A stretch of DNA of 40,908 nucleotides from Kipferlia bialata. Taxonomy: Eukaryota. Under the pieces are notes generated by a model, which saw nothing but the letters and a program-made list of their open reading frames with translations, was not told the origin of the DNA and searched no databases. This document shows, in pieces, positions 1-34,738 of this stretch (position 1 is the stretch's first letter; each line of letters opens with the position of its first letter). Both the position numbers and the translations under genes were made by a program. Where the stretch lies: the NCBI GenBank assembly GCA_003568945.1, contig BDIP01000032.1:1-40908 (forward strand), read 5' to 3'.

Positions 1-31
1 TATATATATAGTGATACACTCTCACCCCAAG

Positions 32-3000
32 GCTTCTTGCCTTCAATGCCACCTACGGGTGTGAGGTTGGAATCGATGTCGGCATTGAGCTCTTTGCCAT
101 GCACGGCATGAAGCCTGTCAGGTATTGTATGTATATATATATATACGTATATGCATATGAGTATGGTAGTGTATTACAGGATATATTGAGCTCTTTGCCA
201 TGCACGGCATGAAGCCGGTCAGGTATTGCTTGTATGTATGTTGCGGAATACATATGTATTATTGTTATCATGTAAGTGGATACTCACACACATAACAATG
301 TTAACATAAATAGTGATAAATCTACCTTCGTTCATTCCTGACCCCCAGGGATGCTCAGACCTCTGCCGACCTGGAGCTCGAGTGTCTGCTATGCTCATCT
401 AGGTACCAGGGTACATGTATAGTTGTATTCATTGCAGGTGTAAATGTATATGAAGATACATAGTAGCAGCTATTTGACATCTTGCTATGCTACATTGTAT
501 TTATCCCTCAGAATCACTGTGTTAATCATTATTGTTAGGGTATCTACTCTATACTAGCGGATAGCGCTCCAATCATACTATTTCAGCACATCTCTGACCC
601 CAGGGCATATGTGTTTGTCATCACTGTGAGTGACCTTGTCAGGACAGTCTATGCATGGGTCGGGAGTGAGGCCAGGTATTGCATGTTGCAATACATTACT
701 GTATTGCTTATTATATACTCTTGTCTGGCTGTTCTGCCTCCATCCTCAGTCTCTCTCTCTCTCTCTCTCTCTACACCCTTATACCAAGGGGCGAGTCTGC
801 CTGTGCTGCCTCCATCCTCAGTATCTCTCTCTCTCTCTCTCTCTCTACACCCTTATACCAAGGGGTGAGTCTGCCTGTGCTGCCTCCATCCTCAGTGTCC
901 AGACAGCGGCATGGCTCAAGGACACATACGGAGAGAAGGTATATACATTGATACACTCACACACATACATATAGTAGTGTATATATCAACTGATATATGT
1001 ATATTATACATATTAGTGTCCAGACAGCAGCATGGCTCAAGGACACATACGGGGAGAAGGTACACATGGTGTATATATACACACTGTTTACATTCCCTAG
1101 CAGGGACCATCGTCAATACATCTGTATATACCTAACCTCCCAGGTTGTGCAGCGTGTGGAGAGGGAGGGCAGTGATATACTGATACATACAATGGTATAC
1201 GAGTCTCTTCTATATATATCCGATGTCTAACCCAGGCTGCGCAGCGTGTGGAGAGGGAGGGCTGCGATATACTAATACACATCAAACACTCTAGTATGAT
1301 ATATGAGTCTATTCTATGTATATCTCTAACCCCCCCAGGTTGTGCAGCGTGTGGAGAGGGAGGGCAGTGAGAAGGACGCATTCCTCAGCCACATCGGACC
1401 CATCGTCGTCATGGAGGTGTATATAGATATATAAGGGCATAGATATATATGTGTGTGTATATATTCACATATATATATATACATATATACGATGTATATA
1501 TATACTTGTATATATATATATATATATATTAGAAGGACGCATTCCTCAGCCACATCGGACCCATCGTGGTCATGGAGGTATATATAGATATATATGGGCA
1601 TATATGTATATATGTGGGTATATATATTCGTATATATATATATATATACATATATAGGATGTATGTTTATATATATATATATATACGACTATATATGAGA
1701 AGGACGCATTCCTCAGCCACATCGGACCCATCGTTGTTATGGAGGTATATATAGTTATATTTATCCATGTGTATGTTAGTGTATACATAGTATATATATA
1801 TATATATTGCATTCCTCAGGACCCATCGTTGTTATGGAGGTGGGTGGTAGACATGCCTATATAAGTACATCTCTTGGATGTAATATTATATGTGTGCATA
1901 TATTCTAGTATTCACTGATGCTCAGGAGGACTGCCACGTGCCCTGTGACACCAATGTCCTAGTTATATACCAGATCATTCATATACGTTCATATATATAT
2001 TCCCCCCACCCCAGGAGGACTGCCACGTGCCCTGTGACACCAATGTCCTTGCCAGGGACCCCTCTAAGCCTAAGCCAAAGACCAAGACAGAGAGGAAGAA
2101 GGCACTGCAGGGTAAGTGTCCTGATAGCTCATATATTGTATGAGACTTGCCATATATCTGTATACTATTGGTTTCACTGAGATGCCTTCATTCACAAACT
2201 CAAGAAGGCCCTGCAGGGTACGTGTTATGTAGTGTTAACCATAGTATTGTATCCCAGCATATGTATACCATATGGTGTATGGTATGATGTTGTTGCATTT
2301 TCACATTTCCTGTGCTAACCCCCAGAGGAGGCCGGTGGACTTAGCCATGACGTTCTATTGTAGTATTGATTATTGTAGTATTTATTATCAATATTCCATA
2401 TTGTATACTTACACCAGAGGAGGCCGGAGGTCTGAGGCGTGTTGTATCCAACACCACCTCTGTCCAGATATACCACATATCCAAGGGGATCGATACAGAC
2501 TTCCCAACAGTGGCCAGGTACCTAGTTAGTTGTATAGACTAGAGTTTTTAGTTTCTACGTATATGATATAAGTAATATCTGCTGATATTCCTCAACCCCG
2601 AACTGCCCTCCTTCCTGGCCTCCCTACCCATATAATGTGATATATGCATATACATATATAAGGAAGATGAACTTCCCACTGTTGCTATATAGTCATATCT
2701 CATCAGACTTCATCTCATCCCCCAGACTGCCCTCCTTCCTGGCCTCCCTGCCCCCTCTGCTCATACCCACGGGGACAGACGCAGGTCGGTTATGTATATT
2801 ATATATATATATATATAAGATATATATGTATATACGGTATACACTCCTGCCCCTCTGCTCATACCCACGGGGACAGACGCAGGTACAGATATATATATAA
2901 ATATGTATATGATATATATATATGTATATATATATACGATATACATGTCTATCCCTCTGTTGATACCCACGGGGATATACGCAGGTACAGATATATGTAT

Positions 3001-6000
3001 ATATATGGTATTTATATATATATCATACGATATCCATATATATCCCTCTGTTCATACCGACGAGAACAGACGCAGGTGGATATGTATATCTGTATGCGAG
3101 TGCATATTTAGCTGTGTGTAGTGTGAGCATTTACTATTCTGCCGTTATCTCTTACCCCTAGACGATGAGCCCACCTACTCCGATGTCAACCCCGAAGACT
3201 ATGTGCTCTCTCTCTCTCCCTCTCTCTCTCTCTCTGTCTCTTCCTCTGACTCTAACCCTAGATGACGAGCCCACCTACTCCGATGTCAACCCCGAGGACT
3301 ATGTGTTCAGACTGGAGGAGGAGGATGGGGGGGAGGACGGGGCCGAGGAGGATATTGTCCAGGTATACTTCAAAGAGAACTGAATTCCATTTATACAGTT
3401 TACATATTTATGTATTTACATATTTATATTTATATATTGATGTATTTGTGTTATATATTTCTTCCCTAACCCCCCAGCGCCAGTGGAGTGGTGTGTATGT
3501 GGTGCATGTCCATATCCCATCAGTAGAAAGATACACATATATGTATATTATACCTATCCCCCCCCAGCGCCACACCCCAGCCACCCACCCACAAATGTTT
3601 ATATTTGCGTGTCTTACATCCAGCGCCAGTGGAGTGGTGTGTATGTGGTGCATGTCCACACACCTGCCACAGAGACAGAGGGGGAGAGGCACGATGTGTA
3701 TGAGTACACACCACAGGTATGGAGTGTCTGGCTCTGCATAGATGTTTTTATATATATGATATTATGTTCTTTGTATATATATGTCCCCCTCACCCCAGGT
3801 CAACCCCATTGTCCATGTCATATTCACATTCAAAGTGATACTTCATGTTTGTATGTGTTTGTGTTCCGTCTGATACTGACCCCAGGTCAACCCCCGTACC
3901 TTTACCATGTATATATATATATATATATATATATATCACCCCAGGTCAACCCCCTTGTCCACGTGGCCAGGTGGAGTGAGAGGGCAGCTGCCAGGTATGG
4001 ATGTACTCTAGTGATACATGCTTCTTTGTACTTCTTCTATGGTAAGTATGGGTAAGTATTGTAATGTCTTCTGTGTACCCCATGACGGTGTATATCCCTA
4101 ACCCCAGGGACCTGTGTGTGCAGCTCAAGGGCAAGCACAACGCAAACCACATCATGCTGGGTATGTAGTTATATACCATATTCATTGGAATCTTGATCAT
4201 TCTCACCATGGACAGTATACTTATCATAATATGTGCTGTTTCCTCCCACCCCAGACTTCGACAACCCGGGCACAGACTACACAGCCGCAACTGCAATGTG
4301 AGTGACAGTGAGTTGAGAGTATTATACTTTTTGTCACCTCCTTTTGCTCAAACCCTGTTTCTGCCCTTTTGATACCTGTTATCCAGCACTATATCTCTTC
4401 ATGTGGCTCTTATATATACTCATTCCAGGTACGATGCCATTCTGTCTGTGGATCCCTATGCCGTTGAGTACCTCTCTCTGTCTCTCTTCTGTTCTCCTTC
4501 AGTCCTCTAGGCAGACCATTCCCATGCCTGGATGCACTCAACGGAGTCTGGGAGGTACGGATAGATGTATGTATATATTAATGACATATGTATTATATAT
4601 TTCATATATACATTGTAATACTGAACGAATGTACTTACTTAATGCTAGTAAGCATTGGCTATTTTATTGCACTCAATGGAGTGTGGGAGGTATGCGATAG
4701 TTTCTATATACATATATGAAAGTATATTGGTATATATACAGAGAGATGGTACCAGTGACTAACCCCCCAGGTCATCGAGGCCAGGGAGAATATATCACTA
4801 GTAAATAATCATGACATATGACTGTGCATGTGCTCATGTATTTGTATTGACTCACCCCCCAGGTCATCGAGGCCAGGGAGAACACCGACAACATCGACAT
4901 TGCATTTGGAGCAGAGAGGTGGGAAGATAATCTTGTTATTATCATTCTTGACTTCTTCTGACTCTGTGTTGACTTCCTCTGACTCTCTAGGGGCATGATG
5001 GAGGGTGATGTCTCAGACGAAGTGTGGGTGTTCAGAGAGAAGACAGAGGCAGAGGCAGAGGGACAGGAGGAGGTATGTTATGTGTAAATTATTATAAATA
5101 AGTATATATATATATACAGAGAGAGAGAGAGAGAGAGAGAGAAGACAGAGGCAGAGGCAGAGGGACAGGAGGATGTATGGTGGATTCATATGATATATGC
5201 ACTGTTTCTTATATGTATTATATATATTCATACGTATATTGTATACTAAGTGTACTTACTCCAGCGTGGCTTTGTGGCCCCTGTGCATGCTAACAGACTG
5301 GAGGTGCCAGAGACAGAGGCAGAGGAGGGGGACGAGTACCCAGCCACAAGGTGTGTGTATATAGAGTGGGTAGTATGATTATATGTATGTATATATATAT
5401 ATGCACATGTGATATAGATGTATCAGAGGCCGAGGAGGGGGACGAGTACCCAGCTACTTGGTACACTCTCTATATGTACCATAGTGGTGATAGTTATTCT
5501 TTGTGTCATAGTATTGCAATATATATACACTGTATCCCCTCACCCCCAGGCCCATGTCCCAGTCTGACACTATTTTTTTAATATATATACACATATACTT
5601 ATGATTCTTTTATATACTTGATACATCCTAACCCCCAGACCCATGTCCCAGTCTGACCTCCACCCCGATGTCGTCACTAATATATATATATATATTTATA
5701 TGTATATATATATATATTCACTGCATTCTAACCCCAGACCCATGTCCCAGTCTGACATTATATTTTAATAAGTATTCATCCATATATACTTATAAGTCCA
5801 TGTATACTTGACATATACACTGCATCCTAACCCCCAGACCCATGTCCCAGTCCGACCTAAATGCATCTTCAAATATCAAATATAATATATATATATATAT
5901 TTATTAGTTGTATATACTTGATATGTACACTACATCCTAACCCCAGGCCCATGTCCCAGTCCGACCTCCACCCAGATATTAACACTTATTAATCCTTCTA

Positions 6001-7485
6001 TTATATATACTGTAGATGTACATATATATATACACTGCATTCTAACCCAAGGCCCATGTCCCAGTCCGACCTCCACCCCGATGTCGTGGCATTTGTACTC
6101 CACGGAGACACATGCTTTGTGTGGAGCGGAAGGTGTGTTATTTGAATATTGTGATATATGTTAATTGGATAGTGAGTTACTGGAATATAGATAGTCATTC
6201 CTCTCACCCCAGGTTCTCCCCCATGGCCCTCAGGAGTGCTGGAAAGAGACTCGCTGAGGTGGGTTGTATATAGATAATATCATTTATCATTACTATATAG
6301 CTTGGGCCACAGTTATCTCTGTTGTATGTGATATTCATCTCCCAAATGTGGTATCGTATCATGTTGTTTACCCCCGAGGCAACCTACCGTGACACGGGTT
6401 GTCCTTTCTATGTTGTATACAATCACATATGTATTTGTGTTTGCATGTATTCATATGCGTATATATATACTCTTATCCCCCAGGCCACCTACCACGACAG
6501 AGATGGCCTCGACATAGTACCATATACATATTGTTATATATATAATTGTACTTGTATTACATGTGTATCTATCTTATCCCCCAGGCCACCTACCGGGACA
6601 GGGATGGCCTGGATCTTGTCTTCACCAACCAGATGATCGAGGGAATTGAGTTTAGGTATGTATAGTCTGAATGATTTACTCAGTATTCGTATACACGAGG
6701 ATTCGTCTCTGATTCCACTCACCCCAGGTCCCTCTTCTCTGACTGGGGCTCTGGTTACGGAGCAGCTCTCGATGAGGTATGGAGATATTACAAATGGGTA
6801 TTGATAATGCATAAATGTAGTGTTTCTATTGAAACCCCCCTCACCCCCAGTACATCACCAAGAGTAGTGGAAGTGTGTATATACATGTGTAGCTTATGTC
6901 TATGTCATTAGTGTAATTATGTATTCCTATGCCTCATCCCCAGTCCATCACCCAGAGAGAGAAGTGCAAGACACACGACATCACTGAGGTATGTAGTATA
7001 TTGACAGCTGGTGTTTGCAGTGACCAGTATTATTATAAGTATCATAAGTAATATTCCTCTATCTCAGACAAATCCCCTAAGTATATCTCGTGACCCTTCC
7101 GGTATATTATTACTATACAACTTAGATATTGTATACAGTATTCTAATGCCCCGGGAGACCACCTCCACTAGTCTTCACTAGTGTGTATTCATATATATAT
7201 ATGTGTGTGTGTATGTGTGTGTGTATGTATATAGTATACACTCCTCTCATACCCCAGGAGGATGAGGATGTGACCACCATTAGCCCTGAGGGCAAGGCAG
7301 CCACACTGGCAGAGGGGGACATGACGTGGACAGGTATGTGAATGTATGGTATATATGTGTGTATATAGTATTATACTCTGCCACACTGGAAGAAGGGGAC
7401 ATGACATGGGCAGGTACGACTTGTATATGTATGATATACATCATATATATATATTCATGTTGATGTATATAAAAATATAAATACA

Positions 7486-7519
<34 letters not shown>

Positions 7520-10500
7520 CTGTAACACTGGCAGAGGGGGACATGACGTGGAACGGTACGACTACTGCATATATATGATATACAACATTTTTATATTCAT
7601 GTTGATGTATATGTATATATAAATATATGTATTCATTTTGTATATATTTATTTATGTATATATATATATGCACTCCCACACTGGCAGAGGGGGACATGAC
7701 ATGGAACGGTACGTGTAATGTGTATAGTTGTATTCATGATGACTATCTTTTGTTTGAGATACTATCTGAACAGGCGTTGTGGCATCTTGTATTCTTTATA
7801 GTTGCCACTTTCCTCTCTCATTCCAGGCGTTGACATCTCGTGGTACAGTCAGTACCCCCCTGCCATACCCTGCCCAGCACCAGCGGAGTTGGAGGTATAT
7901 ATATGTACACATAGATATTCAATGGAGATTATCACACTAGCCTCTGACAATTTGTCCACTCTCACCCCCCAGACTGACTACTTCATACCCCCATATATTG
8001 TATACAATACGTATACAACACATATGTATACTTGCCCTTGTCTAGTACATATCTACTGTCCCCCTCCCACCCCCAGACTGACTCCTTCATACCCCCAAAG
8101 GTGTTCCACGCACATGACGACCGGTACGCCAATACATATACAATAGTGGGAATTAACCTACTAGTATATTTCCACCTGTTCAGACGACATATAACATATA
8201 GACCACCCCCTCTCTCAATTATATGTATATATTTATATTATACATATATATACCGAAAGGTGTTCCACGCACATGAAGACCGGTACGGCTGCTGCATATA
8301 CATATATAGTTATGAACCTCTACCCACTGGTTCATATTCATTCAAGTATGTCTTGTACTTGGATTCCACTTACATCAGGTATGAGCTAGTACACAACCCG
8401 AGAGGACATAATGATTGTATACCCTATATGATATTCTAATTAGTGTGTACCTCACCCCAGCTATGAGCTGGTGCACACCCCCGAGGACGGGTGCTACCAC
8501 TTCTACAGCACAGACTGTGTCATGGCACTGGTCGAGGGAGGTATTCAGTGTATGATATACATACATATATATATATATATATTGTATATAGTATATAGTA
8601 TATAGTGTATATATTATTGATGTGTACCACTTCTACAGCACAGACTGTGTCATGGCACTGGTCGAGGGAGGTGAGTATTTATAGATATATATAAATATAT
8701 AGTATACCACAGTATATATTATATACTGTGGTATATGTAATAGTGTACCACTTCTACAGCACAGACTGTGTCATGGCACTGGTGGAGGGAGGTATGGTTG
8801 AGTATATACGTATAGACATACATATAGTTATATCTGATTCTCACCCCCAGACGGTGCGTACACCGTACATGCCTGTCACTGATATATATTTGTATTGTGT
8901 ATGTATACCCATATATGAATCCCCCCACCCCAAGATGGTGCCTATACTGTACATGCCTGTCGGTGATACATCTATCTATTTATATATGTATATAGTGTAT
9001 GTATACCCATATATGAATACCCCTCACCCCCAGACGGTGCCTACACCGTGCATGCCTGGACCGGTAGGCACAGCAGCCCACTGTCCAAGCTGTCATTCTA
9101 CAAGGTGAGTATACTCATTGATATATATGGATGGATACCTACATACATATTAATATAGACATATGAGTTGATGATATATAATACAAATTTTTTGTGTGTA
9201 TGTCTATTCCTCACCCCCAGGACCTCCTTCTCTGTGTTCTTTCCATGTAATGACTGTGTTTCCTAGTAATATATATATTGATATGTGTTTCTTACCACAG
9301 GACCTCCTCCCCCGCCTCAAGGCCCTGGCCACCCAGCAGGGATACCCCAATGTGGACATTGTGCACACAGAGGAGGTATAATGTATTGATTANNNNNNNN
9401 NNNNNNNNNNNNNNNNNNNNNNNNNNNNNNNNNNNNNNNNNNNNNNNNNNNNNNNNNNNNNNATGTATATGTATATACTATACTGTATTGTAAGGGATAC
9501 CCCAATGTGGACATTGTACACACAGAGGAGGTATATTATAGTAATATATAGTATGACACAGCATAATATATATATATATACTATTTGTCGTGTTAGCAGG
9601 GATACCCCAATGTGGACATTGTGCACACAGAGGAGGTATGATCAAAATCATATACATTAATCGTGAAGGTATATATGTATATATACACTATACTGCATTG
9701 TGAGGGATACCCAAATGTGGACATTGTACACACAGAGGATGTATGATCTACAGTATAATATATGCAGTATATATATGTGTGTGTGTGCGTGTGTGTGTGT
9801 GTGTGTGTTATACTACATCATTAGTATACCCCAATGTGAGGTATTTATATGCATTGATTGTATATATCATGATGACTGCATTGTCGAGGGTATCCCTGTG
9901 TGTACAGGAGGTGTTAAACAACACTATTATGCATATATATTTAGGATGAATATGTGCATTATTGTGTCTAACCCCCAGGGTGCGGAGACCCACGAGTTTG
10001 CCAGGGTGTTCAACTACAGATGCGTGTTCCACCTAGGTACGTATAGATATGTACTTACTGTTCAGTACCTATTGGTTATCTTTGACATACGCCATTCCAG
10101 AGACAAGTGTATCACATTTATGTGTATATTCTAACCCTGTCCACACATGATTTACATGTGTATCGTATGTTATTATATATTCACTAACCCTGTCAGGTGG
10201 CAAGTCCCACCGCTTCTCCTCCTTTGACTATGACTCCATCAATGGGACAGAGGACATGCCATACGAGGTGGGTATGTTGTATGGTGTATGTAGAGATATG
10301 TGAGTGTATATGAACAGCCAATGTGCTGCACTATATATATATTTATATATACTCTTGTATATATGTGTATAGATACCTGCTAACGCTCAGAACACCTCTG
10401 CCCCCTCCCTTGACACTGACATTCTCTCTCTCTCTCTCTATCTCTCTCCATCCATTGTGTGTAGCATTTTAACCTTAGAACACCTCTGCCCCCTCTCTGG

Positions 10501-11415
10501 ACACTGACATTGTCAATGAGCTGCACTCCAGCCAGGACATGATAGACGTCGTGGTGCAGAGGTATGGGTTGTATCACTTTCATGTACATTTTCTCGATAT
10601 ATATGCTTATCTGTATGATTCTTATTATGTATAAAAAATAAAAGTATTTATGTATAAATATACTTCTAACCCTTCCAGGTTTGGACTCCTCCAGTCCAGA
10701 CTGGACACTGTCTCATTCATAGTATATATACATAGTGAATATCTATGTCATGTATATATACTAATTACTAGGTTTGGTCTGCTCCAGTCCAGACTGGACA
10801 CTGTTTCATTCATAGTATATATACATAGTGTATATGTCCTGTATATATATACTAATTACTAGGTTTGGTCTGCTCCAGTCCAGACTGGACACTGTGTCTG
10901 CCCTTGTCAACAGCCATGCACAGAGCCAGTTCTTCATGGAGGGGGGAGCTAGGTATATAGTATAGTATATAATGTATGTATGTATTGACATGTATATATG
11001 TATATATATAGATTATTATATGTAAATAGTGTCTGCCCTTGTCAACAGCCACAGTTCTTCATGGAGGGAGGGGCTAGGTATCTTATATGTATACTTCATC
11101 AGTATAGTATACATTGTCATAAATGCATATTTACTGTACTCTTATACACTCTCACCCCAGACTGTACAAGGTGTGCCTCACCCCCTATGCCCCCCCTGCC
11201 TGTAGACAGATGCACCCCCCTGCATTTTGCATGCTGGACTGTAGGTTTGTATGCATTATATATACACACACACATATGTGTGTGTAGTAGTTATGGTGTT
11301 TCTCACCCTCAGGCATGTGTACCTGCTTGTCTGTGCCCACAAGGTGTACGTCTGGGCAGGAGAGCACAGCACAGTCATCGATAACGAGGTACCATACATC
11401 ATATATATAAACAAG

Positions 11416-11448
<33 letters not shown>

Positions 11449-14383
11449 GCAAAGTGTACATACCACTATTGACAACGAGGGGGGGAATGAGAATATTTCT
11501 TGTCTCTTCTGAAGTTTATATCCATGACCTATCTCTCCCTATATATATGTATATATATCAGCACTTACCTCCAGTACGCAGCACTGTATGCCTCTGAGCT
11601 GTCTGTGCATGACACTGTGCATGAGCAGTATACACACACACACATATATATATATATACATATGGATATATATATATATATACTAACATTAGTATGCCGC
11701 CCTCTATGCCTCTGAGCTCTCAGTGCATGACACTGTGCATGAGCAGCAGGGTGAGACAGACGCACAGGAGGAGAGGGAGAGGGAGATTGTACACCTCGAC
11801 GAGGGTTCAGAGGTACACAAATATACTTACTTATGTAGTAATATATGTGGATTCTTGTCTCCTATTATTAGTATAGACCCTTATCCCCAGGTCCCCCACT
11901 TTGTGGACTGCCTTGGTGGCAGGATGCCCTACAATGGGGTCCAGAGTGTGAGGATACCATCCACGGCACCCACAGCATCACTCACAGTGGCACCCACACT
12001 AGGTATATATATACTCATATATATTTGTTTGCGTGAATATATGTATGTCACATGTAAAATGTCTTTGCATAGTGACTCTATTCACTAACCCCCAGTCCAT
12101 CTCTCTCAGCGGTATCAGTATTAGCAGATATATATACATCGTGACTAACCCCTAGCCCATCTGCAGTGGCTGCACCGCACTGGGTGTCTGGAGGGACCAG
12201 TCCTGGAGGCATATGCTAGGACATGCCTGAACAGGTATATACATTGTATAGTATATATATATATATGATATAGTATAGTGTATATTGAACAGTCTGGAGG
12301 GACCTGTCCTGGAGGCATACGCTAGGACATGCCTGAACAGGTATATACATATATACATATACTGACCATACCTGACTTCTCTTGACCTCTCTTGACCACC
12401 AGGGATGACACCGATAGAGAGGACATCCTGGGCACATCTGAGCTGAGGAGGACAAGGGTGGACGAGCTGGATATGAGGTATATATGTTCTATTTGCTATA
12501 ATAATGCGAATATTTATTCTATGAGGAGTACATAGCTACATACATAGCTGGTAAATATTTGTGAATTACTATTTAGTTTCTGTACTATTCAGTGTGTGTA
12601 TTGGCCAATATTTGTAGCATCCCTCCTTGTGTTATGACCCCTCCCTCTTACCACTAGGCTTGTGTCTCTTGACAGATGTATATATATGGTGTAAGGAATA
12701 ACGAAGATCTGACTGTCAGCTGGCTTGTCTCTTTACAGATCTACATGGATTAATTACGACGATCAATATCTAACTGTCAGGCTTGTCTCTGAGACCCGTG
12801 TTCTGTCCTCTGTGGAGGATGACATCACCCTGCTCGCAATGTGAGTGATATGTATGTTATATGTATGTATATTATATATATAGCCACTGAGTATATGATA
12901 CTGATACTGATACTGATGATGGCATCACCCTACTCGCAATGTGAGTAAGAGTGACTATATATAAATGCATGTACCTTTGTATGCCCTCTCACCCCCAGGT
13001 GCCTCTCCCCCCCACCCATCACCCTACCTAGGGTATACACTGTATCTAGGGCAGGGAGGGTCACCATATGCCTGATGCCTCACCAGGTGACACATTGCAT
13101 TGTACATATCTTTAAGTATCCGATGATCTGAGTAGTGTGATGTTTCTATGACAATCACGTATGTACATTCCAAAGACACATGCATATTAACATGCTCTAA
13201 CCCCCAGGCCTCCCTTGAGTCCAGTGATGCTGCCTGTGTCGTGGTGGATGACCTGTCCATGGTGCACCTCTGGATCAGAGAGGTGTGTGCATGATAGATA
13301 TATGCATTGATAGATAGATAGATATATAGATAGGTAGATAAATATATAGATATGGTATAGTATAGTATTGGATGACCTGTCCATGGTGCACCTGTGGATT
13401 AGGGAGGTGTGTGGATGTATACTTCCGTATTCATTGACGCATGATAGAAATGGTGTATCATGTATTGTTTACTTTATATGTACTCACCCCCATGGTGTGT
13501 CCGAGTCCACTGATTATGTATCAGATATATACATATATACATATTCTATATATATTGTGTATATTCCCCCTCACCCCAGGGTGTGCCCGACTCCACTGAA
13601 TATATATATGATATATATCCTATACATATATACATTATGTGTGTCTCTCTTACCCCAGGGTGTGTCCGAGTCCACTGATTATATATATGATGTATTATAT
13701 ATACTATACAAATTATATATATATACATTCACCCCTCTCTCTTACCCCCAGGGCGTGTCCGACTCTACTGTCAGAAGGGCAAGGGCATTCATACTGGCCC
13801 TGCTCAGAAACCAGGGCCGTGTTGACCTTGTTGATGTTGTGCACAGCATGGATGAGCCCCTGTCCTACGCTGCCCTGCTGCCAGGGTATACATATACATA
13901 TACATATATATATATGTATGAATGCGTGTGTGTGTGTATTCATGTATTAGTACATATATAGTGGTGTTGTCCTATAAGTGTTCTCCTCACCCCCAGCTGG
14001 GCCAGAGTCCCACTCCTTGACGAGCCAGAGCCAGAGCACAACTCGAAGGTATAAACAACCACAAATTATCGCACTTTATGTATCTATTTCTATTGTATAG
14101 TGCCGTCAAGCCTTACATATATATATGTGTGTGTGTATCCTCTTATATAGTGTCGTTAATGTCATTCCTTACCCCCAGGCCGTCATGCTTCGGGAGGGCC
14201 TCATCCGCTATGTGGCCAAGAAGAGAATCACAGACCTCAGAAGGGCATACGACAGTGCCGAGAGCGAGGTAACATGTCGCACTACAATTCACATTATATA
14301 CTGATTTGAGTGATAATGGTATGTCCATCCAAGTCTTTCTAGGATGACATACGACACTGCGGAGAGCGAGGTAACTAATATGG

Positions 14384-14419
<36 letters not shown>

Positions 14420-14465
14420 GTACCATATATCTTGTACCAGGAGGAGGCCTCTGACCTGATGACCC

Positions 14466-14505
<40 letters not shown>

Positions 14506-14587
14506 GTATCGGTTCTCTCTCTCTCTCTCTCTCTCTCTCTATGTATCGTTTCTCACTCTTCAGGAGGAGGCCTCCGACCTGATGCTG

Positions 14588-14629
<42 letters not shown>

Positions 14630-15061
14630 GTACCACATACCTTACACTAGGAGGAGGCCTCTGATCTGATGCGTGACCTCCTTGAGTTCAGAGCAGACTT
14701 TGTGGCAGACTACTGTCAGACAAACACAGACGGCACACCTCTGGCAGGTATATCCTTAATCCAATGAATCCACACCATTCCAATAATGACAGTGACCTGT
14801 TCCTATTTCTACTCACTCACAGGTGCTGGTGAGCGTGGTGTGTTCCCAGACGCCTACTCACCCACTGTACACACACCCTCTACCCTGAGGGAGGGAGAGG
14901 AGAGGGAGAGTGTAGACAGTGAGGGAGAGTACTACGAGGGAGAGGCAGACGGTGAGGGAGAGGGAGAGGGAGAGGGAGAGGGAGAGGATGTGTACTATGA
15001 GGAGGGGGCTGCACCAGGGGGGGTCATTATATGCTCAGATACAGAGTCTGAGGACTACTAG
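32..15061 (+). CDS. Large multi-exon gelsolin/villin/flightless-superfamily actin-binding protein (5'-truncated by the window), about six divergent gelsolin repeats plus an acidic tail
   Basis: Hand-spliced exons join in phase almost throughout (ambiguous near 4430-4510 and 7070). 604-675 [23 protein letters not shown]; 863-938 [18 protein letters not shown]; 1339-1416 [19 protein letters not shown]; 6052-6132 [24 protein letters not shown]; 8461-8540 [11 protein letters not shown]; 9979-10036 [11 protein letters not shown]; 11313-11388 [19 protein letters not shown]; 11693-11812 then 11891 [19 protein letters not shown]; 13208-13282 [22 protein letters not shown]. These match gelsolin-repeat motifs (L.S.D.F/YIL...IY.W.G..S, E..AAA....QL, EG.E...F...LGG). 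Stop TAG at 15059-15061. Confidence 0.85.
1130..1845 (+). repeat. Exon 1339-1416 flanked by two upstream acceptor echoes and three downstream donor echoes
   Basis: Upstream copies start at 1144 and 1236. Downstream copies end ...ATGGAG|GT near 1577, 1744 and 1839. Confidence 0.95.
5520..6132 (+). repeat. Tandem array of five acceptor-type exon echoes followed by the true exon (unit about 90-110 bp)
   Basis: AG acceptors end at 5549, 5638, 5737, 5837 and 5946, each followed by (A/G)CCCATGTCCCAGTCYGAC. The full exon is at 6052-6132. Confidence 0.95.
8703..8735. repeat. Perfect 16-bp inverted repeat with a 1-nt loop between two donor echoes
   Basis: TATACCACAGTATATA-T-TATATACTGTGGTATA. Confidence 0.9.
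9393..9462. other. Assembly gap (70 N) inside an array of donor echoes of exon 9301-9375
   Basis: Run of N; echo copies follow at about 9493, 9596, 9703 and 9825. Confidence 0.99.
14387..14627 (+). repeat. (CT)n microsatellite cluster interleaved with acceptor echoes GAGGAGGCCTCYGAYCTGATG
   Basis: Four CT tracts; echoes start at 14440 and 14564, true exon at 14651. Confidence 0.9.
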
Positions 15062-15351: not shown

Positions 15352-18300
15352 ATGCCTGCAGAGTGTTTGGGTGTTAGCAGTACACCTACTATAGATGGTG
15401 TAGCACCAGAAGAGAGAATGGAGACGGGGGGAGAAGGGGGGGAGTGTGGGAGAGAGGATACCTCAGCACATCCCTCTGGCACTGATTCTCACTCTCTCTC
15501 GCTGTCTGATCCTCCATCTAACACTACTCTTCTCATCGAGGGACAGGTAGAGTCTGTGGCAGATGTTATGGTGGAGGCAGCTGGGAAGTGTGGGGGTGAG
15601 ACAGTGAACTGTGCTGCTCAGAGAGAGAGAGAGACAGTGGTGGAGGAGGGGGAGGTTGTGAAGTCCACCTATGCTCAAGACTCTGGTGTGCAGGAGACAC
15701 TTGGAGAGCTTGTAGGCAATGTATCTCTGGCCAGTGAGACAATGAGGTAAGATACCACGCACACATCTATGCCTCCAACATTATGTCTAATTAGTGTTCC
15801 AATTCCATCTCCGAACCATAATATATCATGTACAATGGATGTCATTCTGCTCAAAGCGTATAATGATGGCCTCATATTTATAACATCAGAGTGACTTGGG
15901 GCCCAAGTCACTTGGCAGACGAGGCTATTGTGTTCTTTCCCTCCTCATTGCTCACCCTTCAGTTATGTACGTGAGTTCATATGCAAACCTGACCCTGAGA
16001 GTGACTTGGGGACACAGTCCCGTGACCTATTCGCTGGACTCGGCCCACTGTGCAAGGATACACTAGGTATCCAAATGTATCATCCACCGATATATACTTC
16101 ACAGCTCCAGTGTTTTCAGAAACATATCATGTAGAATACCATCTGGATACCTATTCACTCCCCCACCCCAGCCCTCTCCGACACGTGGTTCTCCTTTCTG
16201 CTCGATGCAGTCAAGACACTGCCTCTGAGTGCAGACACTCTCTATGGTATACTGATACCACTACGGGTTGTGGCAGGTTGGGCTTCACAATTGTAGTATA
16301 GTGCTAACTCTGTACTACTAGGACTAGTAGTATAGATTATTGAATTCTGACAGTAACATGTAATTCCTTCTGACTACTCCTATATATCAACATATACTCA
16401 TCACTATGTCCATCGCTCCCTCCAGACAACCTGACATGTGAGTCTGCCCCCCTCCTCCGAGAGATGTGCACTCTACTCATCAAGGGGGCAGAGACACTGG
16501 TACAGGAGCCATACAACTTTGATGTGGTGGCTAGGTATGTATATAAGAACTATATAGTGTATAGATACTTAGCATATGTACATATATGTATAGAATATCA
16601 ACTTTGACGGTATGGCTAGGTATGTAGAGAGACAGGTCGTATATACATATATGATATATGTATATATATGGGTGTTACGTGGTACTTAGCATAATGCTCT
16701 AAGCATATGTGTTCATATATATGTCTACAACTCACACAGGAGTGCAACCACCCTGATGTGGTGGCCAGATATGTTATGAAACAGTATAACTACACTATAC
16801 ATATGATATTTACTCAGTATTACATTCAACTTTGATGTACCAGCGTATGTGTATATATTCTAGACATATAGATATCCATGTAAATGAATATGTACACTGT
16901 ATCCAAGATATAGTATATATCTTACACAGGATTGCCACGACTCTGACTCTGCTGCTGTTCGATGACGGCATATCTCAACCAGGTAGAGTGTAGTCACATT
17001 GTTAAGACTAAACATTCATAGTTATTTGAATATTGACTATATTCTATCAGTAGCATGGCAGGGACTCTACTCAGGGAGAAAGTGCTGAATATCTGTTTGT
17101 ATTGTTGCTATTTTGCCCCCAGCTGACAGTCTTACTTCAGATCTCAGTGCTGACAAGAGGGCATGTCGCCAGTACCTCATAGACGAAGGTATAGATTCTA
17201 CACACTGTTGCACTAGAAGAGTCCCGTCCCTAACCACATCCAGTGTATCATACATTTGCATGCATGTAACTGATTCAGGCCTGCTCTTTTGCATACGGAA
17301 ACTCTTGTGTGCCCTTATGGACGAGATAGAGTACGAGGAGGAGTTAGACCCGATGAGTGGGATGGACGGGGTGGAAGGAGAAGTAGAATCGGAGACTGAC
17401 AGTGAGGGGGATGCTGAGTCAGAGAGTGACTCTGACTGTGAGTGCAAGGAAGAGGGAGAGGAGTGTTCAGGAGAAGACCACTCCGACGAGGATCTGGAGG
17501 ATGATCCCTCTGTGCCACTAGACTACAGAGCACGCCAGGATGCAACCTACGCTCTCGGCGAGATGGTCGTTTTGATACTGGTAGGTGTGTGGATGTTATT
17601 GAGAAACATTCTGCTGTTGATTCGCAGTACGTAAAATCGACGTCCTAACCTACCTAGAATTTGCTGACACCAGCGGAGGATCTTGTTTACTCCATTGACC
17701 ATGTGAGGGACCTCGTTGGCTTCTTTGTGGAGTACTCCCTGTTGACTGAGGTCATTTACCACCAGTTGTTGGCCCCGCTGACTGTTCAAGGTACATATTG
17801 AAGAGTATACTTAGTTTTGTATATAATATATATTCAGTTTATATACTCATAGTATATGTATTAGTATTAGGTCTAAGGCGTAAGTACGTTTGCCACTTGA
17901 TAGTGCTATCTTCGTGGTAACATGGATTGAACTGAGGGTGATGTTTGAGACACATTCTGACCCTCTATTACTATTACTGACCTTTAGACAAGACATGTGA
18001 GCTCCTCTTTGAGTCCGGTATCCTGTCCGCCCTCACTGATATTGCAGAGGATGATGAGGAGGTGGGAGGGCTACTGATTGCCTAATGTGACAACACAATC
18101 TAACTATACTGGTGTCACTATCCGAAATTTCGGCTCTTCTAACTGCAGCATGAGTGCATGTTACAGTGGCTGACAAGGAGGCTCCTCACTAGTGGTGAGT
18201 CAGAGAGAATATGTCGATTATCACACGACCTACTGGACAAGTAATATTAGTGGAATACAGTTCGAAATCCCATTACAGCATCCTATCAATAGTAATACTA

Positions 18301-21181
18301 TATAGAGATACTATTGTAGTATCTCTATATATGCAGTGTGTTGTATCCAATATGCCTTCTCCTATTTGACAATTCAGAGACATCTACCGCCAACCACTCC
18401 CTGCGTCCTGGCTTCCTACCCCTCCTCAACGTCATACTCCCTATGCCTGACTATATGGAGGGGCACGGAGATGCATACCGGCTGCTGCTACATGGCTCAC
18501 CTCTCCTCCAATTTGACAGAGATAGAGCAGCCACCCTGCGGTGCCTGAGAGTTGCACTAGAGAGAGGTATACACCATCATAGCACGTATATATCAATTCC
18601 TGACCCTCCCATTGTATTGTGTGGTAATAGTTATCTCTGAAAGATCCACTCACTCGTTAGACACCGTCACCGATGTCGGGGATCTGGTGACGGGGCCCAA
18701 GTCCCTTCCCGCACTCATATACCCACTGCTCAAAGTGAAGTATGAGGAGCAAGACATATCCCTGGCGACGCAGGTATGGAGTCATAGCATACAATCTGCA
18801 AGGACTATCGGATACCCATATTAGGTCATGCCTCTCTAACTGAATATGTATGGTCCAGTATTGTATTTCTCTCTCCTTTCTATCTCCCTTTGCGGTCAAT
18901 CATCAATGTATTTGTATATCCCTCTAATACTCAGATGCTAGGAGAAGCCATGTTTGTGCTGTGGGTGCTCGCAGACAAGGGTATGTGACACGCTATGTAT
19001 ACTGACTATATTGTGATACGTAATCACATGTGTGTTATGTGATGCGTATATACAATGTATTTTTCAACCCCAGTGGAATCACCTGAGCAGGAAGTGTCAA
19101 TCCTGCGTCCAGCCTTAGAGCCCCTCTGTCAGTCTTTCTTAGACTGCAAGGTGAGTATCAGTATCAGTATATATAGAAAGATACTGATACTAATACTGAG
19201 GTGACCAAGTCTGTCCAGAAGGGTGGGGGCGTCATCTCACTCCTGTTGCTGCGCACTGTACTGCGGGTCCAGGGCAGAGGTACAAATATGTATACACACA
19301 CATAGATATATATATATACATATATATGAACATGTGTGTGTCAGGATCGTCCACTCTTGGTGCCCTCTATTATTGATTCTTACATATTCTCATTCAACTA
19401 CCAGTGTGGAAGCGTAATGACCCTCACTCCCAGCCCCATTTTCTCAACCAGAGTACATTCCCCAAGTCCACAAGACTGTCATCAAGGTATAGTTATATTG
19501 ATCCTCACGGGAGTCACATCGAGAATTTCACACAATACACCCTTGTTGCGATATATCTGGTATAGTATCTATATGTATGTGTATACTATGTCGCCAAACC
19601 CCTCGTTGCCTGTTGACAGTGCTTAATCACCCCAATGACCCTAGATTCTCAACTGGAAGAGGATCCAGAACATACAGTCAATGTGTGCCATGGTGCTCTT
19701 CAACATGGCTGGGGTGGAAGGTGACCCATGGTGATACACAATTACACATATATATACTATATGATGATACAAAATTTACTGTGGTGGAAGGTGTACATGT
19801 AGAGTATAGTGACACATATACATACAGGCCACCGGCAGTGGAAGAAATGAGGTGATATGCAATATTACTGTACCGTTAACTATCCATGAATTGTGCATCC
19901 AACCTCAGAGACTCACTCACCTTCTCGCATGTGTGAAAGCGCCACTGTCCAGAGCCTCACAACATACATCTCTCAGTACTCTGATGTGAGTGGCGTCATG
20001 TTCAAACTCCCAGTCTGGAGGTTGCTCGCTCTCTGGTCAGCAAACCGTACGTCATCATTCAAACTCCATAGTGAAATGTGTATCTACTTCGTACAACACG
20101 GTGTAAAGTTTGACTCTTAGCTGTTGAGTACAGAGGGTTCTCTTTCATAATGGTCTCACCGCAGCTGGGAACGAGAAGCCTCTGACAAAGGGCAAGGTCA
20201 ACACAATGCTCTCCTTCTGTCCCTTCCAGGTTTGTCCTTCTAATGTGATGCTACGTATTGTGTACTACCTTTCAATAGAGTCAGTGGTACACGAGAGCAA
20301 TACAACTTAACGTAAAGAGAGTACAACTTGAAATCACTCGGGATTCTATGTATCTGGATACTTTACCATCATCACAAGTGAATTAGTGTCCAGATTAATG
20401 AGTCAAGTATGCATATATATATTCATAGTCATTCGTATCTTACTCTCTTAGAACGTAAAGCGTATCTCTTATACCAGTACCCTCAGGAGAGGCTGGAGTG
20501 GTACACAGCCAGGGTCTCCAAGTACAAGAGGGCTCATTCGCTAGAGGCCATCTACAAGTGCACCACCAACAGGTACAGGACAGGATATTCTTTTCCTTAG
20601 CCTATACGTATGAACTTAGTAACTATCTAAGAGGATCGATACCTAAGATCACGATTGCGTTCATTCATTTCATGCTATATCTCACCTGTTAGTGATGGAG
20701 TGACCAGTTCCACAGCAGGGTGTGTAATTGATTGGCCTGTAATGTAATGTATACTCCACCATCTTTCTTTCCATACTCAATATAGCGAGGGAGTGACCGG
20801 TGCCACATCAGACCACAGAGGCCCAGAGAGTGTTAAGCTCATACTGGCAGAGATACACCAGCTGGCACAGATACTGGAGGCCTTCTTCAAGGTGCGAACG
20901 GCCATCTGAACACACATTCTGAATACACATTCTGAGATGCTTACTATTGTGACTCAATATGCATCAACGGTGAAAATGTCGTAATTACCCACCCTGTATA
21001 CCAATTATCACCAACCCAGTGGAAGGGGGCAGAACCAAAGAAGCAGGAGTCCCCTTCAGAGGAAAGGCCAGAGACAGTCACTTCCTCAACCGACAAGTCC
21101 AGTGACCAGTCTATCACACTCATCCGCATCCTCTACATCTGCATAGCCTTCTGTGTGTATTCCTATGCCGTATGGTCATAG
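15352..21181 (+). CDS. Multi-exon hypothetical protein, probably alpha-helical/ARM-like, with acidic low-complexity segments and a C-terminal hydrophobic tail; paralog of 26375..31762
   Basis: ATG at 15352, first exon ends ...ETMR|gtaag at 15745. Internal exons read LVQEPYNFDVVAR, LLFESGILSALTDIAE, LPALIYPLLKV..., MLGEAMFVLWVLADK, PVWRLLALWSAN. Last exon from 21020 ends ITLIRILYICIAFCVYSYAVWS-TAG (21179-21181). The fold assignment is inference. Confidence 0.7.
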
Positions 21182-21791: not shown

Positions 21792-24700
21792 ATGGGAGAT
21801 GAGTATGAGTATACTCTGCCTATGAGGTATCTCCTAGGGGGTGTGGTGGAACTGGTGGCTGGGCTGCTCGCACTCTATGCCCTGTGTTGTCAGGTACGGA
21901 CACTTACTTCTGATACCCACACACTCCTATTTGGATACAGCAATAGCCATGGGTATGTATCCTGTAACACTCATGTCCCCTCACTCCTCTAGAGTTAGTG
22001 AATGTCTATGGTACTCTCTCCCCAGACCCAGCAGAAGAGGGTCACTTATCCCTATAGAGTATATTAAAACTGTACATATAATTACTATATTGTATTCATA
22101 ACACTAGGTCTCTCCCCCCAGAAGGGTGGGTTTACTTATACCATACTATAACTGCAATGTATTCATAACACTATGTCTCTCTCATAGTACTATATCCTCT
22201 CTCACATCAGACCCAGCAGAAGAGGAGGCCCTCACTCATACTGTAATGTACTTCAATATAACACACTATTATGGTACCTATATGGGTATACGGTGTATGA
22301 GTCTAACATCAGACCCAGCAGAAGATGCGACTCACTCACACAGTATTGAAGTATGTATATAGTGCTATTGTATCACTGATAGAGTACACATATAAGAGTG
22401 TCTCTCTCACCCCAGACCCAGCAGAAGAGGAGGCTGAAGAAGGGCCCCTGCTCTTGGCACAGCAAGAGAGCCAGACAAGAAGTGACACGGTCACAGGTAC
22501 TGACTCTCTCTCTCTGTCTCAATATATGTATATATATCTTGGGTCTGCATTTGCACAGCAAGAGAGCCAGACAAGAAGTGACGAGGTCACAGGTACTGAA
22601 GCACTATCTCTCTCTCTCTTTCTTTCTCTGCCGCTATATATGTATACATATCTTGAATCTGCTCCTGGAACAGCGAGAGAGCCAGACAGGGGGTAGTGAC
22701 AAGATGACGCCTACTGGTCTCAGTCTCTCTCTTCCTCTTTCTACATGTGAATTCCTAGGTAACAGGTATTGAGCAGGAGGTGACACGGTCACATGTATGG
22801 ACCCCCCCTCTCTCTAGACATATTTTCGTCTCAATACACTGTATACTGTATACAGAGAGCCTCTATATTATATAGACTATATGTCCTCTCACATCCAGCT
22901 CATGCTACTTACAGCAGTCCTCGGCCATGCAGTCAGGTACTCGTTCTTCTCTCTCCCTCTCTCTCTTTATCTCTCCCTCTCTTCCTCTACCCCCTCATTG
23001 TCGGCCATGCAGTCAGGTGTGTGTTAATATCTCTCTCTTCCTCTCTCTTTCTCTATCCCCTTAGTGCCAGGGTTGCTTAGGTTACTCTCTCACTATCTCT
23101 CCCTCTCCACCCATACTACCAGGACTGAGGTTCGTCTCTCTCTCTCTCCCCATCTACACCCTTATTCTCAGAACTGCCTGGGCCTTTGCGATGCCTCTGT
23201 CCAATGACCAACTGCCATTCCTGCCAAAACTGGCCATGAACAGGTACTCTATGACTCATAAATTATGAGTATGTATACAATCACCATTATTATCCAGCAT
23301 ATATACAATAAATATCCTATACATACTATATACACTGGCTACGCACAGGTACTATAATAGAATGTATATGTGTTATCTAACCTGACTCCCATATCAATCG
23401 GCATATTATAATTATACACTTTCCCATATATAGTATATAGTATATATATATTCTATATACACTGTATGGTGTAACTCTCTCACCCTAGACTGTCCACCCT
23501 GCTGCTGTTCCTGTCCTTCAGCATGTACATCAACCAGTGTCTGCTGGTGTCATCAAGGTAAATGCATGCAACTACTACATTTTTGTGAATATATGAGTGA
23601 GGTATATTAGTATAGTCTAAAGATAATCTAAGATTATCTTTAGACTAAAGATTAGACATCAACCAGTGTTTGCTGGACCAGCAGACTCTGCTGGTATCAA
23701 GGTACATGAATGTAACGATACATATTGACATATATATATCAACAAATACACGTTAGCAGTTAGTAACTATAATAGTTACTAACTATTCTAAAGTGTGGGT
23801 TGTCTCTTCCACCCACCCCAGCTATGTCATGTCAGAGAGGTCACTTCCTAGACACATCATCAATGCAGTCACATGGGTTGTGGCATGCACATCAGGTACA
23901 TATATGTCACCATGCATCATATTCATCCATGTGTATAGTACGTCTCTACCCTCAGGAGCCATCATTGTGTACTATGTCACCATGTAGTATATGCATACAT
24001 GTATATATACATATATATCTACGTAGTTATGGTAGTCTCTACCCTCAGGAGCCATCATGGTGTACTATGTCACCATGTGGCTATTGTGCACTGACGATGC
24101 TGTAGCAAGAGAGCTGCCATTCACCAAGTATGACCTGGTAAGTGTGTGTGTGTGTCTCTCTCTCTCTTTCTCTCTTTCTCTCTCTCACTCTACTTCGTAT
24201 CTTACAATACACACTACTTCAATTCAGTACTATTTCGTGGTATTATGGGTGTTTGTGGCCTATATACCAATCAAATAAAAAAGTCTCTCTTTTCATCCCT
24301 CTAGTACTAACATCCAGTATTACGTCGTCTTTGTCTGGGTGTTTGTGGCCATAATGTTCCTCTTAGCCGGAAGGGCCATCAAAGGGTACGTTTTACGTAA
24401 CGTACAAAGACAATGACTACTAGTCTCTATTCATGAATATCAAGGCTAGAGCCTTATATGTTTTATATGGATATTGTTCACAGGGATATCATAGGGTATG
24501 TAGGCATATATCATTGTATATATCAACCCTATCATTCCAGGCAGCTACAATTGATCATGGTAAGCTGTCTAACTTGTCACTCTCGGTCACTCCCTTACTC
24601 TCTATATCTTACTCCCAGTGAATTTGTATATATATTCAAATACAATTGTGTATATATACGTGCATCTGACTTCCAGGCAGCTTGAGCTGATCATGATCAG

Positions 24701-26087
24701 CTGTCTGCCCCATGTTTCTCTCTCTCTCTATCTCAGCATATACATATGTATCTATATATATTAACACATAATAGCCAATATCTGACTCCCAGGCAGCTGA
24801 TCATGGCTAGCTCTATCGGAGGAACAAAGGTAAGCTATTCTCTGGCATACATACGTAATATGTAATTTATGACCATCGACCAACCTCGTGTATGTTGTTC
24901 TGTTAGTCACTATACACATTCTAACAGATTTCAATTCCCGATAACTCACCTCAGAACGAGAGAGACTTCTCCCCCCTGATCAGACAGCTCAAGGTGGGGA
25001 TGGCAGTCAATTCCTGATGATGATGTAACCTCCTATATATTAGTAATATATAATATAATACAATATAATATAATATAATAATACATCTAATAAATCAAGG
25101 TCTCTTCTGCCATTGGTGCCGTTTGTGCAGTGGGCAGAGGCATCGCATACCTCCTGTGGTCATTCAGAGACAACCCAGGTACTTGTATGTGGACCTCTCA
25201 CTCTCTTCCTGTCTCTCTATGTGTATATATTCATATACATATATAGTGTGTGCACTCACTCCAGATGTATGGAACCTGCCAGAGGGCTGGGACCTCTGTA
25301 TCTCCCTCTCTCTCTATGTATATATATATTCATATATGTATGTATGTCCCCTCACTCCAGATGTATGGAACCTGCCAGAGGGATGGGACCTCTGGGTGTT
25401 CTTCTTCCTACCAGACGTTGTCCCTACAGGTATGAGACTAGTATTTTACCCGTTATGCCATTCCATCACATGCTATGCATCGGACATGACCTCTAATCAG
25501 CTAATTGGGTGATAGTAGCGCTGACTGACCAGTCACCATGTCCAGAACAGTATTACTTATTATTACAACTATATACATTTTTACTTTCCTTCAAAGGATA
25601 GGAAACATCGGAAATGACCTCTACTAACTGTCCAGTCACCATATCCCTCCTTGTGCTCGGCAAGGCCCCATTGACAAAGAACAAGAGAGCAAGGTGGGTG
25701 CTATCTCTACATAGTAATACAGATAGAAGTACTATTGGTATTATTGATGCTATTGTGTTGTCTTAGCAAACTGGGTATTCTATCTACTATTGGGTGGTCC
25801 AGCGGTATTGTTTGTGTTATGATCAAGTACCTCTCTCAATGATTGAGTAATACATTAACCCAGTGGAGTGAGTCTGAGCTCTGGCAAGAACCACATGCCA
25901 CCAGTCATTCCCAATCCCTTGATCACACAGGTGAATATGCTATACATTAGTATATACATGTATTCTGTTATACATACATTTGATCTCCATCGCTGCTTCA
26001 ATGTCAATACCTGTCCTATTCTCTCTCTAATTTGAACAGGGTTCCAGGCCAGTTGCTATGGGTACTGTCCAGGATAGTGTGCTGTGA
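21792..26087 (+). CDS. Multi-exon seven-transmembrane protein, THH1/TOM1/TOM3 (GPR137-like) family candidate
   Basis: ATG at 21792. Spliced hydrophobic segments: YLLGGVVELVAGLLALYALCC; AMNRLSTLLLFLSFSMYINQCLL; IINAVTWVVACTSGAIMVYYVTMWLL; YYVVFVWVFVAIMFLLAGRAIK; QLKVSSAIGAVCAVGRGIAYLLW; WVFFFLPDVVPTVTISLLVL. The last resembles the family's TM7 E/D-x-x-P motif. Last exon 26040-26087 ends TGA. Confidence 0.65.
23613..23647. repeat. Perfect 17-bp inverted repeat with a 1-nt loop (intronic)
   Basis: TAGTCTAAAGATAATCT-A-AGATTATCTTTAGACTA. Confidence 0.95.
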
Positions 26088-26290: not shown

Positions 26291-26300
26291 TCCGATTCTG
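26291..26300 (+). promoter_or_regulatory. Candidate promoter element TCCGATTCTG, starting 84 nt upstream of the gene 4 ATG
   Basis: 26375-26291 = 84 = 15352-15268. CGTTTCAT also lies a short distance upstream in both genes. Confidence 0.5.
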
Positions 26301-32133: not shown

Positions 32134-32980
32134 CTATGGATCCTCCCTCTCAGAGTCTCTCTCTCTCCCGCTGTGTCTGTGATATGCGTCTGTGTCTCTC
32201 TCCCCCTCTACCTCTCTCTCTCCCGCTATGTGTGTGATATGAGTGTCACCCTCTCCCTCTCCCTCTCCCTCTCTCTCCCCCTCGGTGTCTCCCTCACTGG
32301 TATTGAGACATGCCAGCATGGCTGGGTCAGCCAGATCTACTGTATCCCACAGGGACCTGGGGGGTGAGAAGGACTACATGTATCTCACATGTGCCATAGT
32401 GTCCCAGAAGGATCTGAGGTCACACTGTCTCTATACTATATACAATTCCCAATATATACATCACTTACCTGTTGGTGTCTCTGGTATCCACCAGTGACTG
32501 CAGCAGAGTGTATCTCTCTCTCATTATATCAATATATATATCAATATAGAAATACATATATATACCATACCTGTTGGTGTCTATGGTATCCACCAGTGAC
32601 TGCAGCAGAGTGGCCAGTGGCGTGTCTGTATCACCAGACAGGGAGGGAGCGGGTGAGAGAGAGTGAGTGCTGGAAGTGCCAGACTCACCCTCTCTATCCA
32701 CCTCTCTCTCCCCCTCAATATATGGCCTAGAAGTATATGTCTCATCCACCTCTCTCTCTCCCTCTGCTACTGAAACACTAGTATCTGTCTCGGCATACAT
32801 TGCAAATGATGCTATGGAAGCGGCATACCGTCTGACAACATAGTCTATGAAGGAGACCTGAGATAAGTATACACAAGGGTGTAATTGAAAGTACATATCT
32901 ATACATTTATGGTACCTGGCACTGCCTGATACCCTCAGGGCCTTGGCCTCTATCTCTGAAGGAGCCCATCTGATAGTTAG

Positions 32981-33014
<34 letters not shown>

Positions 33015-33162
33015 TCTATCTCTGAAGGAGCCCATCTGAGGGTTAGAAACATATACCGAGAGGGACAGAAAGAGGGAGAGAGGAAGAGAGAGAGAGAGAG
33101 ACATATACAGTGTGTCCCTGAAGGAGCCCATCTGAGAGTCAGAAACATATATCAAGAGGGAC

Positions 33163-33206
<44 letters not shown>

Positions 33207-34699: not shown

Positions 34700-34738
<39 letters not shown>

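Follow-up and report, generated by a model that had tools for sequence, protein, structure and literature searches.

Half-exon copies crowd the introns of a Kipferlia bialata contig and carry a coding signature unlike that of dead duplicates

The window, one complete contig of 40,908 nt, comes from the free-living fornicate Kipferlia bialata, which is reported to be diploid and whose genome is a short-read SPAdes draft with an assembly size equal to the k-mer estimate (PMC5874029). Its introns contain partial copies of the neighbouring exons, many of which a self-trained gene finder called as exons, so the gene models were curated by hand instead. The five curated genes, with 136 exons and 131 introns, define the scope of the census; every intron is GT–AG and each gene has a single open frame. 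The genes are arranged as follows.

32..15061, forward strand: gene 1, 47 exons and 1223 codons, truncated at the 5′ end where the contig begins; 59 copies
15418..21176, forward strand: gene 2, 22 exons; 3 copies, with pN/pS about 1
21792..26087, forward strand: gene 3, 15 exons; 8 copies
26375..31762, forward strand: gene 4, 22 exons, a paralogue of gene 2; one copy, 27237–27275
32134..40285, reverse strand: gene 5, model of 30 exons, 13 of which have copies (18 in all)

Gene 1 is weakly gelsolin/villin-like, the Pfam Gelsolin family matching two single exons below its cut-off (E 0.02 and 0.25), and a homologue search with one gene 1 exon returned no match. Its model requires an uncertain 35-nt intron at 4468–4502, where the other introns measure 50 nt and up; either an exceptionally short intron or a local misassembly within a CT run may explain this. 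The paralogous genes 2 and 4 have several exon sizes and intron positions in common, and copies are few in both. Past the modelled end of gene 2 lies a direct repeat with an acceptor-like site (21180–21340), and the true last exon is uncertain; intron 13 of gene 4 (29911–30075) holds a wholly intronic repeat with a period of about 53 nt. Gene 3 encodes a hydrophobic product, probably a membrane protein of the multi-pass type. A public protein model, KIPB_000302 (P0001), is identical to gene 3 over 281 amino acids and to gene 4 over its last 718, and uses the same inner exons as the curated models; it fuses the two genes (21792–31762), which the curated models keep apart. The last exon of gene 5 (32157–32290) contains an internal 57-nt tandem repeat, and a coding-looking exon upstream of the modelled gene (40587–40748, reverse strand), for which no confident in-frame join was found, is excluded from the counts.

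The 131 introns hold 89 half-exon copies, 49 of them exon starts lying in the upstream intron (acceptor copies) and 40 of them exon ends lying in the downstream intron (donor copies). An anchored search, using exon bases only and a score of at least 18, gave 49 upstream matches to 5′ exon parts and 41 downstream matches to 3′ parts; upstream 3′ and downstream 5′ matches both numbered zero, leaving no copy of the wrong polarity in the five genes. The downstream match at 5168 is a shifted duplicate and was dropped, giving the total of 89, and the chance expectation, estimated from 2917 far pairs sampled out of 17302, is 0.5 and 0.0. In unanchored local alignment of each exon against the introns, 62 of 262 adjacent exon–intron pairs reached a score of at least 26; the corresponding counts were 1 of 252 for next-nearest, 71 of 17302 for far and 0 of 262 for reverse-complement pairs. 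This alignment yielded 92 matches (42 upstream and 5′-anchored, 38 downstream and 3′-anchored, 12 unanchored), none of them a whole-exon copy, in agreement with a preliminary description of this DNA that had seen no complete duplicated exon. All 13 of the coordinates checked from that description are anchored half-exon copies with AG or GT intact, the one given as 13371 being the copy at 13369–13406.

The copies end abruptly, and their exon parts measure 10–54 nt, never more, separated by spacers of 36 nt or longer, with a median unit spacing of 101 nt (interquartile range 92–118). AG is retained in 46 of 49 acceptor copies and GT in 38 of 40 donor copies, and every copy lacks at least one of the two splice sites and covers at most 0.66 of its exon. 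Nearly one junction length is common to 10 of 17 arrays. The principal arrays are listed below.

185..222, forward strand: gene 1, exon 1 donor copy, 37/38, GT
789, with a truncated one at 723, forward strand: gene 1, exon 4 acceptor copies
1015–1059, forward strand: gene 1, exon 4 donor copy
1144 and 1236 (array 723..1262), forward strand: gene 1, exon 5 acceptor copies
1531..1960, forward strand: gene 1, three exon 5 donor copies and one exon 6 acceptor copy, the latter with exon part 35/35 and flank unrelated
2846..3208, forward strand: gene 1, three exon 8 donor copies and an exon 9 acceptor copy; the live exon 8 donor is of the weak GTC type
3478..3512, forward strand: gene 1, exon 10 acceptor copy, exon part 35/35, flank unrelated, its splice signal outscoring that of the live exon
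5424..5977, forward strand: gene 1, exon 18 donor copy and five exon 19 acceptor copies; among the six versions of the exon 19 acceptor, two synonymous sites occur in all four combinations
7380..7708, forward strand: gene 1, three exon 24 donor copies with a four-gamete pattern
8625..8959, forward strand: gene 1, two exon 27 donor copies (46/46 and 45/46, same junction) and two exon 28 acceptor copies
9493..9740, forward strand: gene 1, three exon 29 donor copies beside the assembly gap at 9394–9462
10679..11077, forward strand: gene 1, exon 33 copied three times, twice at the acceptor and once at the donor
13369..13677, forward strand: gene 1, exon 42 donor copy and three exon 43 acceptor copies, all three with the same 19-nt junction
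14348..14592, forward strand: gene 1, exon 45 donor copy and two exon 46 acceptor copies
22026–22325 and 22550–22794, forward strand: gene 3, three acceptor copies in the first interval and donor copies in the second; others elsewhere in the gene
37207, reverse strand: gene 5, copy 38/38, flank unrelated
33230–33035, reverse strand: gene 5, three acceptor copies

Copies occupy 51 of the 131 introns (39%), and the median intron length is 261 nt with copies versus 129 nt without. Each copy adds about 97 nt to its intron (r 0.86), and arrays account for 9571 of the 26552 intron bases in the window (36%; 55% in gene 1), which upholds the earlier proposal that local duplications over one splice junction, here about 100 nt apart, enlarge introns. 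The same description called the copies pervasive, which is true of genes 1, 3 and 5 and not of gene 2 or gene 4; within gene 1, copies accompany 30 of 47 exons, and copy density tracks intron TA content over the five genes. Donor copies lie 5′ of acceptor copies in all 11 introns that have both kinds, an order from which no AG...GT pseudo-exon can be built. A candidate chimeric acceptor–donor pseudo-exon at 16740–16769 was rejected, being a donor copy with GT changed to AT.

The polarity of the copies is no discovery in itself: it follows from the geometry of any duplication over one junction. Other features exceed what geometry provides: for every 89 halves, random duplication with the observed lengths would leave about 25 whole-exon copies, and 39% of the halves would cover more than 0.66 of their exon, whereas the observed figures are 0 and 0 of 81. 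This absence of whole-exon and long copies, together with the donor-first order and the rarity of outer sites that would keep an open frame (14 of 89), would fit choice of the innermost acceptor–donor pair and purging of the rest. Random duplication also predicts about 38 intron-only duplicates, which are hard to see; a repeat occurs in 4 of 50 copy-free introns, two of these repeats looking like missed copies, and this comparison lends no support to a targeting of splice junctions beyond geometry. A proxy test for junction microhomology gave no signal (p 0.28).

A coding signature marks the exon parts of the copies. Third codon positions hold 126 (73%) of the 172 differences between copies and live exons, compared with 43–45% when a dead copy and its live exon are simulated under the same detection; on unique changes, the binomial p for the excess is at most 2e-6. 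Between copy and live exon, pS is 0.195 and pN 0.029 (pN/pS 0.15), or 0.186 and 0.022 with the copy ends left out, and four-fold sites differ at 84 of 433 versus 46 of 1662 for zero-fold sites, a pattern that holds for every base. Copies compared with one another give the same ratio (pS 0.230, pN 0.035, pN/pS 0.15). By rank outward from the live exon, pS rises slightly (0.17, 0.21, 0.26) and pN takes values of 0.018, 0.022 and 0.027; pN is alike in the proximal and distal halves of copies (0.030 and 0.028). An internal contrast comes from genes 2 and 4, whose four copies resemble products of ordinary decay free of codon bias, with 3 synonymous versus 11 non-synonymous differences (Fisher p 4e-4 for the contrast). 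Synonymous states are shuffled among copies: in the 8 arrays with three or more copies, all four gametes occur in 3 of 4 informative column pairs, from two arrays, a small test in which recurrent mutation could mimic exchange.

Matrices trained on copy-free sites score the splice signals of the copies at full strength. A copy scores at least as high as its live partner in 59 of 89 cases, and acceptor copies score 7.2 bits versus 6.6 for the live partners and −5.6 for random AG. At 2785, 6052, 10863 and 11693 the live site (a GTC donor, or an acceptor of the AAG or TAG type) is less strong than its copies, so the choice of the inner site cannot rest on strength alone. The intron side is far less conserved: identity between copy and live flank is 0.35–0.44, with 0.28 for unrelated sites, and flanks are related at p < 0.05 for 24 of 49 acceptor and 17 of 40 donor copies, three donor flanks abutting an N gap. 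When the spacers of the 52 innermost units were aligned with the neighbouring flank, 7 reached z > 3, 11 reached z > 2 and 27 stayed at z < 1 (mean z 1.2), where a true homologue at 20% substitutions would be expected to reach z > 3 in 73–93% of cases. In those 27 units the exon part is still identical at 716 of 785 positions (91%), and exon identity shows no coupling to flank similarity (rho −0.04 and 0.28).

The copies do not behave like dead duplicates. Kept amino acids, silent sites about one-fifth diverged, strong splice signals and scrambled flanks together indicate junctions that were working until recently or have been refreshed. The proposal that the copies form a stratified record of each exon's own past fails on the same data, since the synonymous bias exceeds the limit for dead copies, pN does not rise outward and clear homology to the neighbouring flank is seen in just 7 of the 52 innermost spacers.

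Other alleles as the source of the copies are the most economical reading of this working-version pattern. On this reading, to which we give a probability of about 0.5, the copies are pieces that come recently from working alleles which have diverged, and homologous exchange, pairing in the exon-derived repeat alone, renews them. We infer a route of three steps. A first junction would arise by one-sided repair of a break in an exon: one end, with the homologue or the sister as template, copies about 100 nt spanning the splice site and is end-joined back, so that the old half exon is left outside and the new copy inside. The spliceosome would use the innermost acceptor–donor pair, making one-junction copies harmless and leaving whole-exon copies to be purged. 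Between alleles with introns diverged beyond pairing, unequal crossover or gene conversion would then place acceptors, donors and exon halves of live alleles at outer positions, and would also add units with the same junction and collapse long copies. The copies themselves would be non-functional, their coding signature inherited from a recent life as working alleles. The repair gene set of K. bialata fits such exchange: fornicates are without NHEJ and Rad51A and have Dmc1 duplicated (PMC8516963), and in K. bialata Spo11, four Dmc1 entries and Pol theta are present and Ku70 is absent (PMC8516963, Supplementary Data 2). A wider picture, put forward tentatively, is that the introns are a haplotype archive, in which exon-only pairing swaps the live junctions of highly diverged alleles and splice sites turn over; over a third of intron DNA would have been made in this way, and one haploid assembly would record about 19% silent-site diversity together with cryptic recombination.

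Several observations weigh against the allele-exchange reading. It calls for alleles that differ by about 19% at silent sites and are close to saturation in their introns, and high allelic diversity in K. bialata is something we infer rather than observe: an exon-4 query returned KIPB_000302 alone, in a cluster of one, a gene 3 query returned no short allelic or paralogous protein, and a metagenome scan with KIPB_000302 found no relative. Many of the repeats, at 10–25 nt, are short for conversion; the flat pN of proximal and distal halves goes against a single unequal crossover, which predicts older distal ends; and the missing microhomology signal and the decay-like copies of genes 2 and 4 also count against it.

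The main rival, which we regard as unlikely, dispenses with hyperdiverse alleles. The copies would be long-lived tandem duplicates under second-order selection, in which pop-out recombination makes an outer splice site and its half exon live and damaging changes are purged in a very large population. This accounts for the synonymous bias, the intact splice signals, the old, scrambled spacers and the failure of the searches to find a second allele, and the 54-nt ceiling is in line with loss of longer copies by pop-out. It predicts, however, that pN is higher in distal halves and that exon and flank identity are correlated, neither of which is seen, and it needs high collapse rates for repeats of 10–25 nt.

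The tandem-duplication model of the preliminary description, taken here as plain duplication between sister chromatids with neutral decay afterwards and faster slippage where intron DNA is TA-rich, is improbable. The 7 innermost units that are clear whole-unit duplicates, the pN/pS near 1 of the gene 2 and gene 4 copies, the relation of copy density to TA content and the slight outward rise in pS all speak for it, and it may be valid for a minority of copies. As a general model for genes 1, 3 and 5 it is refuted, because it cannot yield the third-position excess, the copy-versus-copy pN/pS or full-strength splice signals beside unalignable flanks.

Error-prone repair synthesis, or a switch to a foreign intron end, with survival only of products that keep the protein and the splice site intact, would give unrelated flanks with strong signals and synonymous-only differences, and Pol theta is present. 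The account is nevertheless very improbable: a per-base error near 20% in one event would be required, pS would be expected to add up with rank and does not, and the spacers are on average weakly related.

Present coding selection, acting on copies translated in part of the transcripts through alternative splice sites or a non-canonical jump between direct repeats, is similarly hard to credit. Used exons do show such codon-level constraint and strong splice signals, but in just 14 of 89 copies would splicing at the outer site leave the reading frame intact and free of stops, and spacers after acceptor copies do not begin with GT. The sole spliced contig seen, of 180 nt and depth 4.5 from run X2 (presumed RNA), agrees at every base with exon 21 of gene 2, starting at the inner acceptor, and skips the following intron at GT..AG. 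Evidence for use of inner exons thus consists of this contig for gene 2 exon 21 and of the public model KIPB_000302 for genes 3 and 4.

Least probable is an assembly artefact in which a short-read assembler stitched diverged haplotypes head to tail: allele-like differences, the 54-nt ceiling, a spacing near a short-read length, one N gap inside an array and the short-read nature of the draft would suit it, but up to six distinct versions of one junction occur in a reported diploid and the assembly size equals the k-mer estimate (PMC5874029). The independently assembled contigs of run X1, which may be the source sample, contain 0.94 of 980 words sampled from positions 1–9390, where 41 false junctions would remove 94–129 words and at most 64 are missing (p at most 3e-4), a result under which some individual junctions may still be false.

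Among known systems, tandem exon duplications and mutually exclusive exons place exon-like copies with coding constraint beside an exon, but no Kipferlia copy has both an acceptor and a donor. Under the Rogers model, introns are reportedly gained by tandem genomic duplication, duplicated exonic AG and GT making a new intron. The Kipferlia arrays likewise involve local duplication that includes splice signals; in contrast, existing introns lengthen and no new exon or intron arises, each spacer having one splice site only and frames running continuously through the inner exons.

The preliminary description suggested, with reserve, that the arrangement had not been described as a genome-wide architecture; the same arrangement exists at single loci. 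Amphioxus ‘mirages’, reported for the globins BflGb6/BflGb9, Adh3, troponin C and PGBD5, are tandem copies over an intron–exon boundary that include exon 5′ or 3′ ends, mostly keep AG or GT, have units of about 60–160 nt and reportedly leave splicing undisturbed (PMC3087553, PMC3902484). The Kipferlia copies resemble them in spanning the boundary at either exon end and in mostly keeping AG or GT. They differ in the intron part, which in BflGb6 aligns across all units at 81–100% identity (PMC3087553) and in Kipferlia is mostly unalignable, and in extent, mirages being found at a handful of animal loci and Kipferlia copies in 39% of the window's introns. The available text of the two amphioxus papers (PMC3087553, PMC3902484) contains no codon-level analysis to set beside the coding signature of the Kipferlia exon parts. 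Because most units lack the whole-unit similarity that defines mirages, the Kipferlia copies are termed mirage-like.

Splice-site-spanning minisatellites are described in human genes (the 37-bp VNTR of F7 IVS7; CBS IVS13, IFI 6-16, lamin B2 and PDGF), and in F7 IVS7 the donors are reiterated downstream of the exon and the most upstream, innermost one is used (PMC1557585). VNTRs of the F7 type are homogeneous repeats with identical pseudo-sites and few exon bases (PMC1557585), whereas the Kipferlia units are heterogeneous in length and flank, include 10–54 exon bases and duplicate acceptors as often as donors. Repeats at exon–intron boundaries are also covered for human paralogues (PMC2812944). 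A search of the open-access literature on Kipferlia introns, splice sites and heterozygosity, including the available text of PMC6679479 and PMC11316075, returned no account of half-exon copies. The architecture is therefore known in kind, and new in its density, its lineage and its allele-like signature.

Half-exon copies are a trap for gene finders. If they prove genome-wide, they would provide thousands of natural contests between equally strong splice sites, and so a direct test of inner-pair choice, in an organism whose spliceosome is reduced to 87 of 174 proteins (PMC6679479). They would also constitute a pathway of intron growth that can be measured, in the one fornicate of the 2018 genome paper that is rich in introns, and offer a testable explanation for amphioxus mirages, and allelic diversity and recombination would become readable from one assembly.
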